A DNA stretch of 63,856 nt, the filler included, from Collodictyon triciliatum (Eukaryota): the NCBI GenBank assembly GCA_043381765.1. It is 13 parts of 13 records of this genome, joined end to end, with 100 filler letters (N's around TTAATTAATTAA, not from the genome) between each part and the next. Parts side by side here need not be neighbours in the genome. Positions count along the whole stretch, not along the records: positions 31,089 to 36,173 come from JBHJMP010005509.1; 12 more parts are not named here. The stretch is one strand, 5' to 3'. The notes under the pieces are model-generated. The model ran no database searches. It was not told the DNA's origin and worked only from the letters and a program-made list of their open reading frames with translations. Below are positions 31,130-33,137 of the stretch, one piece after another (position 1 is the first letter of the stretch; every line of letters begins with the position of its first letter). Made by a program: the position numbers and the translations under genes.

Positions 31130-33137
31130 ATTCCCTGCTACAACACATCTTCCGATGACATTCATTACATCAACAATCCCAGTCACGGACAATGGCTGCC
31201 CTATTTCCTTATCGAGTATTTTCCTGATAGAAGTGTGTAATTCTTCGAGAACTCCAGGCCCTGAGCTCACACCTCCAAATCCCTAGCAAAATCGATTTTT
31301 ATTTGTCTGCTAATGAGCATTACAAGAGAAGATATTCGGACAAAAAGTAACGAAATGCGTTAAGTTTTTTTTTTCATAAGGCGAAGTAAAGCAATCTTAC
31401 CCGAATCGGAAGTCCCTTGGGACGGATTTTTGAATAGTCGAATTGCTGATAAGAAAAGTTAAAAGGGTTTGGTTTCAGATGATGGTAACTTTTTTCTCTG
31501 AAACTTGTTGATTGGACTGGTAAACATGGTACACCATAATTAATCATAGAATAGCTTTTATGTATCATACCATAACACCGCTTGTCTTACTGAAGTATGA
31601 GTCTATCAAATATGCAACTGATTCTACCCATCCTTGAGTGAAAATAGTGTGAGAAGAAAGGAGAAAAAAAAAGGGTTGAGATAATTCAGGGAGATACATA
31701 TTTATGTGTGCTTTAGATATTGTCATTTCTAACCCTCTCTCGAGTCTGGAATGATGTACGTTGAAATTGGTTTGGAGGGGTTTGGTCCTTTCACAATAAC
31801 AGAACCCGCGCCTTTAGTATCGAATCCGACACCAACACTATTAGCCGATAATAATTTCTTGTTAGGTACATCTATTTCAAGGTTGGTATTCAGCTTCGAT
31901 GCTTCAATATGAAATAACATAAAAAACATAAGAATTAATTATTTTTTTGTGATGAGCAGTTGAAAAAAAAATAAAGGAATGTGTGTTACCCAAGCATGGA
32001 CGCATCCATCAAAAAGGAAAATGGTTTATGAGGCTCATCTTTCAAATTTTCCGTGCTAACAAAAGCGCAGTTGTTAAGGGCAGCATACAATCCTCGTTCT
32101 TCAGTGAGCGGCGATCCCATAGCCCAGAGGCCTTTTCATTTACAACGTAAAGTTAGTAAAAAAAAAAAAAAAAGTGAATTGTGGGATTGCTCCTGGCTTA
32201 TCGAGTATCCAAATCTGATAAAAATATCCTCTTTTTTTTTATGGAACCAAATAAGATTGCTTGGAAGATTGTAATGTGTTCTATGGTTAAATCCCCTACC
32301 GCGTCCTGGAGGGAGGAACTTGAGAGAGAATATACGCGAGTACATTTCTTGTGCGCTTCGTTGTGCTCTTCTGGCATTCCATCCAAGTCCGTGTTGTTCA
32401 ATCCAGCGTTTCTGCATATTATATGTTCCATTCACAACCCTCTCAACTGTTTCAAACCTTTTAAGATAAAGCTCATATTACAGAAGGTTTAAATCCGAAC
32501 ATACAAAGGGGAAATACAACTGCCTATATAGTCAAATCGACTCTTCAAATAATATATGTGTAGAATATGTAAGTGCTACAATCAAAGGAACTATCTGAAA
32601 ACGAATCCTATCCATTATTCGAACAACCACCCTTAAAAAAATTTTTTAAAAGATATCAACTGTACAAAGAAAGGAGAAAAAGTCTACACGTAAGCGTTGT
32701 TCTTACATGCAATCGTCATGATGTCATCATTATTCTAATATATACAGTTTCACAAACCATTGCTCGTTCGAACCGTCCTCTTTCAAACGCGAGTATGTGC
32801 GCAGGTAGACAAGTTCACCAAGGCCGTTGAAACCAAAAGGAACGGGCTGAGTCTTGTAGCTTTGCACAAAATCTCTGGAGAGACGGAATGGCTTATCTCG
32901 GTCGTGAGACGTGGAGTAAAAAAAAGAAGTGTTTTCGGGAATGGTGTTTGTTGGGGTAGAAGGCGACGAGGCGGCAGGTGGTGACGTTGTCGACGACAGA
33001 CTCAGTGCGCGAGACGAAAACAGTCGCCCTTGGCCAAGACTTGAATCCCAAGCAAGAATATTTGCCTGAGAAGCAGAGGCACAGGGTCGAATCCTCAGGG
33101 CCCCGCTTACGGCAAACCGTCTCAAAAAGAGACTCAT
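31130..33137 (-). CDS. nrdJ: Adenosylcobalamin-dependent monomeric class II ribonucleotide reductase (RTPR/NrdJ type), 5' part, at least 7 exons
   Basis: PFGFNGLGELVYLRTYSR, WFETVERVVNGTY, KFLPPGRGLWAMG, AALNNCAFVST, FLMDASMLGVGVGFDTKG, IPDSREGWVES, FDYSKIRPKG, GFGGVSSGPG, IGRCVVAGN; all joined by GT-AG introns. Confidence 0.93.

Follow-up and report, generated by a model that had tools for sequence, protein, structure and literature searches.

The window analysed here is a 63,856-nucleotide stretch of DNA from the eukaryote Collodictyon triciliatum (GCA_043381765.1), and the subject of this study is a gene within it that encodes an adenosylcobalamin (AdoCbl)-dependent class II ribonucleotide reductase (RNR), NrdJ, with an N-terminal extension. 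The window is a chain of separate contigs of ~5.08 kb, in which runs of N recur every ~5183 bases as N44-TTAATTAATTAA-N44 (5084-5183, 10267-10366 and so on to 62050-62149). Since the contigs were joined artificially, synteny across the joints is meaningless and genes at the ends of the pieces are truncated; the NrdJ gene lies on the piece 31089..36173, and nothing beyond this piece was counted as linked to it. The GC content of the whole window is 38%. An initial annotation had described an intron-containing, monomeric NrdJ with about 80 extra N-terminal residues, and had interpreted these residues as a mitochondrial presequence carrying a processing-like motif.

The peptide quoted in that annotation lies in a minus-strand open reading frame (ORF), 33185..32730, and translation of 33137..32757 yields 127 residues (P0001). 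Direct reading of the junctions gave six complete GT-AG introns of 300, 168, 152, 101, 125 and 118 nt, separating seven exons that total 1044 nt, or 348 codons without a stop. GC content is 27-32% in the introns and 48% in the exons. The closest relative found, P0002, is a 650-residue ORF designated complete by TransDecoder in a EukProt Trinity assembly. Used as a tblastn query against the window, it aligned through residues 63-364 as six collinear segments (32996..31127) and had no match anywhere else in the window. A nuclear, spliced NrdJ gene is thus represented in the window by its 5′ part alone, cut at 31089 because the contig ends there; the thiyl-radical cysteine and the C-terminal cysteines fall outside, as does most of the barrel. 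The features of the locus, in the order of transcription, are:

33186..33188, minus strand: in-frame stop TGA, 17 codons 5′ of the start, which closes the frame upstream
33140..33145, minus strand: ATG-TAG miniature upstream ORF (uORF), out of frame and 8 nt 5′ of the start codon, read from the sequence
33135..33137, minus strand: start codon ATG with A at -3 and G at +4, the sole in-frame ATG of exon 1
32758..33137, minus strand: exon 1, encoding the extension and positions 1-42 of the RNR_Alpha profile, with the domain beginning at residue 86
32300..32457, minus strand: exon 2, encoding the remainder of RNR_Alpha (profile positions 43-95)
31990..32131, minus strand: exon 3, holding the cysteine of LNNCAF; the equivalent block of the Lactobacillus leichmannii enzyme (1L1L) aligns in the orthologue P0002
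31734..31837, minus strand: exon 4
31571..31632, minus strand: exon 5
31401..31445, minus strand: exon 6
31130..31282, minus strand: exon 7, the last one present, followed by a GTATAG donor whose intron runs into the contig end at 31089
30989..31088, no strand: artificial contig joint N44-TTAATTAATTAA-N44, which truncates the NrdJ gene

The identity of the enzyme is supported by matches of the exon 1 ORF (positions 1-43, E 2e-12) and the exon 2 ORF (positions 43-95, E 1.5e-19) to RNR_Alpha (PF17975), with residues 86-127 of P0001 matching profile positions 1-42 at E 4.6e-12. Together with the six introns, these matches bear out the description of the locus as an intron-containing class II RNR. 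The label "monomeric" is applied to the window gene because the class II insertion domain PF21995 was detected in its orthologue P0002 (residues 266-335, E 1.9e-14). Downstream of the extension the two proteins are identical at 253 of 285 positions (89%) and remain collinear across the PF21995 region; exons 3, 4 and 7, when submitted singly to Pfam, gave no match, being too short, and exons 4 and 7 are two of the four exons that span PF21995. This part of the initial annotation therefore stands by way of the orthologue and finds no match of its own on the short single exons of the window. P0002 also aligns with L. leichmannii 1L1L over both halves of the protein (E 8.2e-76), including the NNC, NPC-E and following Cys blocks, and the consensus of the clade to which P0002 and the window gene belong (described below) terminates in a Cys-x-x-x-x-Cys (FCDxxxC) motif. 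These similarities support assignment of the locus as a eukaryotic, intron-containing, monomeric-type AdoCbl-dependent ribonucleoside-triphosphate reductase (class II RNR, NrdJ/RTPR).

Three comparisons agree in delimiting an N-terminal extension of ~80 residues, encoded by 33137..32895, and confirm the extent given in the initial annotation (32900-33137). Position 1 of the RNR_Alpha profile falls on window residue 86; residue 6 of 1L1L aligns with residue 100 of P0002, which corresponds to window residue ~85; and the prokaryotic loci recovered in our searches match P0002 only from residues 96-99 onward. The frame is open from the ATG at 33137 into the catalytic domain without splicing, and after splicing no further Met is encoded until residue 141, which already belongs to the RNR_Alpha domain. 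Because 33137 is the sole in-frame ATG ahead of the catalytic domain, the extension cannot be bypassed. It is shown to be real and obligatory: every protein made from this gene carries an extension that the prokaryotic enzymes lack.

The mini-uORF 8 nt upstream of the start codon and further ATGs within 300 nt upstream could be taken to mean that the extension is a gene-model artefact, with translation starting elsewhere or the region being 5′ untranslated sequence. We regard this as very improbable. Any start later than 33137 would lie at residue 141 or beyond and give a truncated enzyme, the frame runs unspliced from the ATG into the domain, the transcript-derived ORF of P0002 has the same start and an extension of its own, and the GC content of the extension (53%, against 27-32% in the introns) is exon-like.

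The extension can be divided into three segments:

33012..33137, minus strand: basic head, residues 1-42, with 5 Arg, no Lys and one acidic residue (D31)
32940..33011, minus strand: Ser/Thr/Pro-rich low-complexity linker, residues 43-66, with 12 Ser+Thr and 4 Pro in 24 residues
32895..32939, minus strand: conserved tail, residues 67-81, inside a block 86% identical to P0002

The linker differs in length and sequence between the window and P0002, and the conserved tail probably belongs to the mature protein. The head displays a φ-x-x-φ-φ pattern at residues 5-9, with two Arg at positions 6-7, and the tetrapeptide RLFS at residues 38-41 (33026..33015). Its first 30 residues contain four Arg, no Lys and no Asp or Glu. 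Over residues 1-66, the counts are six Arg, no Lys and one acidic residue, in line with the nearly acid-free, Arg-bearing leader of the initial annotation; with 9.7% acidic residues in residues 82-348 as reference, the binomial probability of one acidic residue or fewer is 0.0094, and the Arg:Lys ratio of 6:0 compares with 17:15 in residues 82-348 (Fisher p 0.063). A hydrophobic core of the kind found in signal peptides or membrane anchors is absent from the extension, where the maximal Kyte-Doolittle means are 1.3 (8 residues), 1.2 (12 residues) and 0.64 (19 residues) and hydrophobic runs are broken up by Arg, and a by-eye check of the head revealed no peroxisomal targeting signal 2 (PTS2) pattern. 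These features support the view that the composition of the head is that of a mitochondrial presequence.

Stromal transit peptides would also be compatible with the low acidic content and with the Ser+Thr content of the extension, which is 31% overall. The leader might then address another organelle, such as a plastid if the organism has one, or be an ambiguous dual-targeting peptide. Hydrophobic and basic heads are more typical of mitochondrial than of plastid leaders, and such a head, with Arg at positions 6-7, is what the window protein has; a secondary plastid would moreover require a hydrophobic core resembling that of a signal peptide, and Balamuthia, a plastid-less amoeba, belongs to the same clade and bears the same kind of extension. 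Targeting to such an organelle is, in our estimation, improbable.

The extension of P0002 comprises 95 residues, the first five of which are identical to those of the window protein. Of the 52 extension residues that align, just 19 are identical, yet the two proteins have in common their start, a basic head and an R-(x)-F-S/T-S-S site. Low identity with a retained basic head is the usual mode of targeting-peptide evolution, and this extension appears to evolve in that manner. Sites resembling RLFS also occur in other relatives, namely RSFG (P0272), RSYS (P0110) and RQYS (P0359).

To place the extension among homologues, a phmmer search over 1.84 billion representatives retrieved 5299 relatives at E ≤ 1e-3. 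A conserved N-terminal motif was located in 191 of 271 collected proteins, and in 159 of these 191 it lies at positions 20-39, the location expected of a protein with no extension. A word-indexed search contributed 115 new proteins, seven of which bear extensions of 42-144 residues, and added the eukaryote-labelled P0272 and P0359 (EukProt) and P0365, annotated at NCBI as a Balamuthia mandrillaris ribonucleoside-triphosphate reductase. With a basic, acid-poor head defined as a net charge of at least +2 and at most one acidic residue in the first 30, such heads were found in 11 of 20 proteins with an extension of at least 35 residues versus 11 of 274 without one (294 Met-initiated homologues bearing the motif). 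On the prokaryotic side, five loci were recovered from 185,579 species genomes, with ORFs that begin 13-39 residues before the match; the four from DPANN archaea have several acidic residues among their first residues. Other long N-terminal extensions, of 64-113 residues, occur in P0176, P0243, P0204 and P0206, and are acidic rather than basic. Many of the top NrdJ homologues (P0122-P0271; P0018, P0040, P0057, P0097) reach lengths of ~900-1600 residues and match in two to five separate stretches. Intein or homing-endonuclease Pfam domains are present in several of them; inteins appear to be common in this branch of NrdJ.

A phylogeny of NrdJ, which the initial annotation had suggested, was constructed from mature parts with the extensions trimmed, using 49 rows that we chose from 386 proteins and four locus ORFs and a quick IQ-TREE search under LG+C20+F+G4 with Shimodaira-Hasegawa-like approximate likelihood ratio test (SH-aLRT) support. 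The window gene pairs with P0002 at 100% support and sits in a 16-row clade supported at 98%, which contains all four eukaryote-labelled rows (three from EukProt and the NCBI Balamuthia mandrillaris entry). Extensions of at least 35 residues are present in 14 of the 16 rows, and basic, acid-poor heads in 10 of 16; the Balamuthia head (P0365) is Arg-rich yet falls below the threshold for a basic head. A 72-row tree under LG+G4 recovered the same core clade at 96% support. The sister group, at 88%, consists of sequences from DPANN metagenome-assembled genomes that are 64-66% identical to P0002; these loci (L001-L004, from Woesearchaeota and Nanoarchaeota, with the match at 501-2100 of each) are the nearest prokaryotic relatives. 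P0029 and P0083, two AT-rich partial proteins with basic extensions and a possibly dictyostelid-like character, were placed elsewhere on a long branch, and a homology search with P0029 for a named dictyostelid NrdJ returned no named eukaryote among the 120 matches listed. The tree supports recurrence of the same kind of extension across the eukaryote-labelled NrdJ clade.

Mitochondrial targeting and import is, in our view, the best reading of the leader, and we place its probability somewhat above even. Under this model, residues ~1-42 would act as a matrix-targeting presequence recognised by the import pathway of the translocases of the outer and inner mitochondrial membranes (TOM/TIM23), a processing peptidase would cut near RLF|SS, around residue 40, and the Ser/Thr/Pro-rich linker would serve as a flexible spacer. 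The matrix enzyme would then reduce nucleoside triphosphates (NTPs) directly to deoxynucleoside triphosphates (dNTPs) for mitochondrial DNA (mtDNA), using AdoCbl made in the matrix by an adenosyltransferase as cofactor and mitochondrial thioredoxin as the source of electrons, and would need neither oxygen nor the cytosolic class I enzyme.

Several observations weigh against this reading. The helical hydrophobic moment of the first 40 residues reaches at most 0.35 (over 18 residues), a value attained by 70.6% of shuffled sequences; the corresponding value for the P0002 head is 0.55 over 18 residues, attained by 6.6% of shuffles. AlphaFold2, given the exon 1 product and an alignment of 15 rows, predicted no helix in residues 1-85 at low confidence, with block-mean values of the predicted local distance difference test (pLDDT) of 44-53 over residues 1-80 and a first helix at 88-93. 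By our estimate from the composition of the extension, the pattern R-x-[FYLIM]-[STAG] is expected ~0.6 times by chance per 80 residues, and RLFS is therefore no proof of a processing site by itself. Extensions of 80-144 residues are long for presequences, and their Ser/Thr-rich part resembles plastid transit peptides or disordered tails as well. Within the clade, P0007 has no extension and P0118 one of only 19 residues, the head of P0023 is not basic, that of P0206, on a long branch, is acidic, and P0288 lacks an initial Met. The catalytic half of the window gene lies outside the window, and we infer an intact enzyme only from the orthologue P0002. Lastly, the authors of a study of Dictyostelium assigned mitochondrial dNTP supply to class I RNR and could not detect NrdJ protein (available sections of PMC3605638). 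Two elements of the initial annotation consequently come through in part: the R-x-F-S motif is present, at a frequency close to that of chance, and the mitochondrial interpretation has the extension, its composition and its recurrence in the clade behind it, with amphipathicity not above that of shuffles and no AlphaFold2 helix on the other side of the ledger.

Two structure-related searches returned candidates that we set aside. A search of the PDB with the exon 1 product matched the N-terminal region of an Arabidopsis mitoribosomal chain (6xyw_Ay, E 0.011), a hit that is driven by low complexity and is not evidence, and a search of the ESM Atlas with residues 1-66 had as its best match, at 0.79, a cluster of eukaryotic RTPR N-terminal fragments 132 residues long, a score that is below the level that shuffled proteins attain and is a lead only.

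The predicted disorder of residues 1-85 and the unremarkable amphipathicity of the head would be expected of a cytosolic enzyme whose extension is a fast-evolving, disordered, low-complexity tail without a targeting role, perhaps regulatory or neutral. Such tails are common in protist proteins, the Ser/Thr/Pro-rich middle varies in length between close relatives, some clade members have no basic head, and work in mammals treats ribonucleotide reduction as cytosolic. A neutral tail, however, would not keep a basic, acid-free N-terminus in 10 of 16 clade rows against 11 of 274 homologues without an extension, nor would it spare the first five residues and the R-(x)-F-S/T-S-S site amid the divergence that otherwise separates the window extension from that of P0002. 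By analogy with animals, a cytosolic AdoCbl enzyme would also need a cofactor supply that animal-type trafficking does not provide. We consider a cytosolic tail unlikely.

The compartment of cofactor synthesis bears on the function proposed for a mitochondrial enzyme. The adenosyltransferase step of cobalamin metabolism occurs inside the mitochondrion. Animal cells dealkylate cobalamin in the cytosol through CblC and direct it to the mitochondrion, with a cob(I)alamin adenosyltransferase producing the AdoCbl (sections of PMC8085122). Because of this animal trafficking scheme, dNTP synthesis in the matrix, where AdoCbl would be made, is plausible for the window enzyme. Extending the proposal, the whole eukaryotic clade, which takes in this organism, Balamuthia and other amoebae and probably also early fungi and further groups, may consist of mitochondrial matrix reductases that make dNTPs in place from matrix NTPs with organelle-made AdoCbl and mitochondrial thioredoxin; we offer this tentatively and give it slightly less than an even chance.

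The remainder of the NrdJ contig and the other pieces of the window contain further genes and repeats. An intron-rich gene for a GSK3-type protein kinase (34449-36022, plus strand), one exon of which matches human GSK3-beta chains at E 1.3e-38, is divergent from NrdJ, with ~1.3 kb between the two starts, and a T run followed by ~21 A lies between them at 33262-33296. At the contig end, an (AAAGAA)n tract (36024-36173) cuts the kinase gene short, and the neighbouring contig terminates in ~197 tandem CTCAAT hexamers (29802-30988, 82% matches); the occurrence of simple repeats also at the end of the NrdJ contig suggests that the assembly breaks at repeats. Elsewhere, on other contigs, lie a pyruvate kinase gene of at least three exons (6154-8216, plus strand), an ORF of 399 residues with NHL repeats (435-1631, plus strand) and an exon encoding an ion-transport domain (45700-46080, plus strand).

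Class II RNRs have a recognised, patchy presence in eukaryotes. They are recorded in Dictyostelium, Euglena, Trichomonas, Monosiga and Phytophthora (PMC3019208), in early-diverging fungi, Fonticula, Amoebozoa and Oomycota (PMC8085122), in Anaeramoeba (PMC11550330) and in Umbelopsis (PMC7928374), according to the sections of these papers available to us. The monomeric eukaryotic enzymes of Dictyostelium discoideum, Euglena gracilis, Phytophthora, Monosiga, early-diverging fungi and Anaeramoeba resemble the window gene in their patchy distribution, bacterial type and insertion domain, and co-exist with class I RNR where this has been examined; the same sections of PMC3019208, PMC3605638, PMC8085122 and PMC11550330 mention no N-terminal extension or compartment. 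The terms targeting, signal peptide, locali-, extension and compartment are absent from PMC3605638, and the full-text literature searched, which leaves most subscription journals outside, contained no report of an N-terminal extension or of organellar targeting of a class II RNR. The gene is a new member of a known eukaryotic NrdJ group, and the presequence-like leader common to the group is undescribed in the literature searched. For Dictyostelium, the class II enzyme was found unable to compensate for inhibited class I, and its role was called enigmatic (sections of PMC3605638); with regard to the mitochondrial reading, the evidence from this organism cuts both ways. A mitochondrial location, if true, would explain both the retention of class II beside class I and the enigmatic role in Dictyostelium, and would provide a testable answer to the question raised in 2013 about the purpose of a second, B12-dependent reductase in that organism.

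Comparison with three known systems puts the window gene in context. The prototype of monomeric class II RNRs, the L. leichmannii enzyme, shares RNR_Alpha, the insertion domain and the Cys blocks, as judged via P0002. In the bacterial chain ~5 residues precede the first aligned position, as against the ~80 extra residues at the front of the window protein, and the window gene, unlike that of L. leichmannii, is split by spliceosomal-type introns.

A second parallel is the mitochondrial AdoCbl system of methylmalonyl-CoA mutase, MMAA and MMAB, whose AdoCbl-linked proteins are encoded in the nucleus and enter the organelle by way of N-terminal presequences. MMAA, which assists the mitochondrial AdoCbl enzyme, bears a putative mitochondrial signal of 41 residues in Euglena (PMC3901258). 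This system differs from the one proposed here in performing mutase chemistry rather than nucleotide reduction, and no reductase has been placed in it in the literature searched. A matrix NrdJ, if true, would add a third role for eukaryotic B12 metabolism inside mitochondria.

The third system, the class I RNR of model eukaryotes (R1/R2, p53R2), has the same task of de novo dNTP synthesis, including the supply for mtDNA. The window has 285 ORFs of 60 residues or more; a Pfam scan of the 146 that reach 78 residues detected no class I RNR or cobalamin adenosyltransferase, a result that, in a window of unrelated contigs, says nothing about the genome. Class I RNR depends on oxygen and iron, acts on diphosphates and is regarded as a cytosolic enzyme. 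For the eukaryotes examined to date, ribonucleotide reduction is assigned to the cytosol and mitochondria are thought to import or salvage their DNA precursors. An imported class II enzyme, if this reading is true, would be the first dedicated intramitochondrial ribonucleotide reductase and a different solution to the supply of mtDNA precursors, one that is independent of oxygen and coupled to the compartment that makes AdoCbl.

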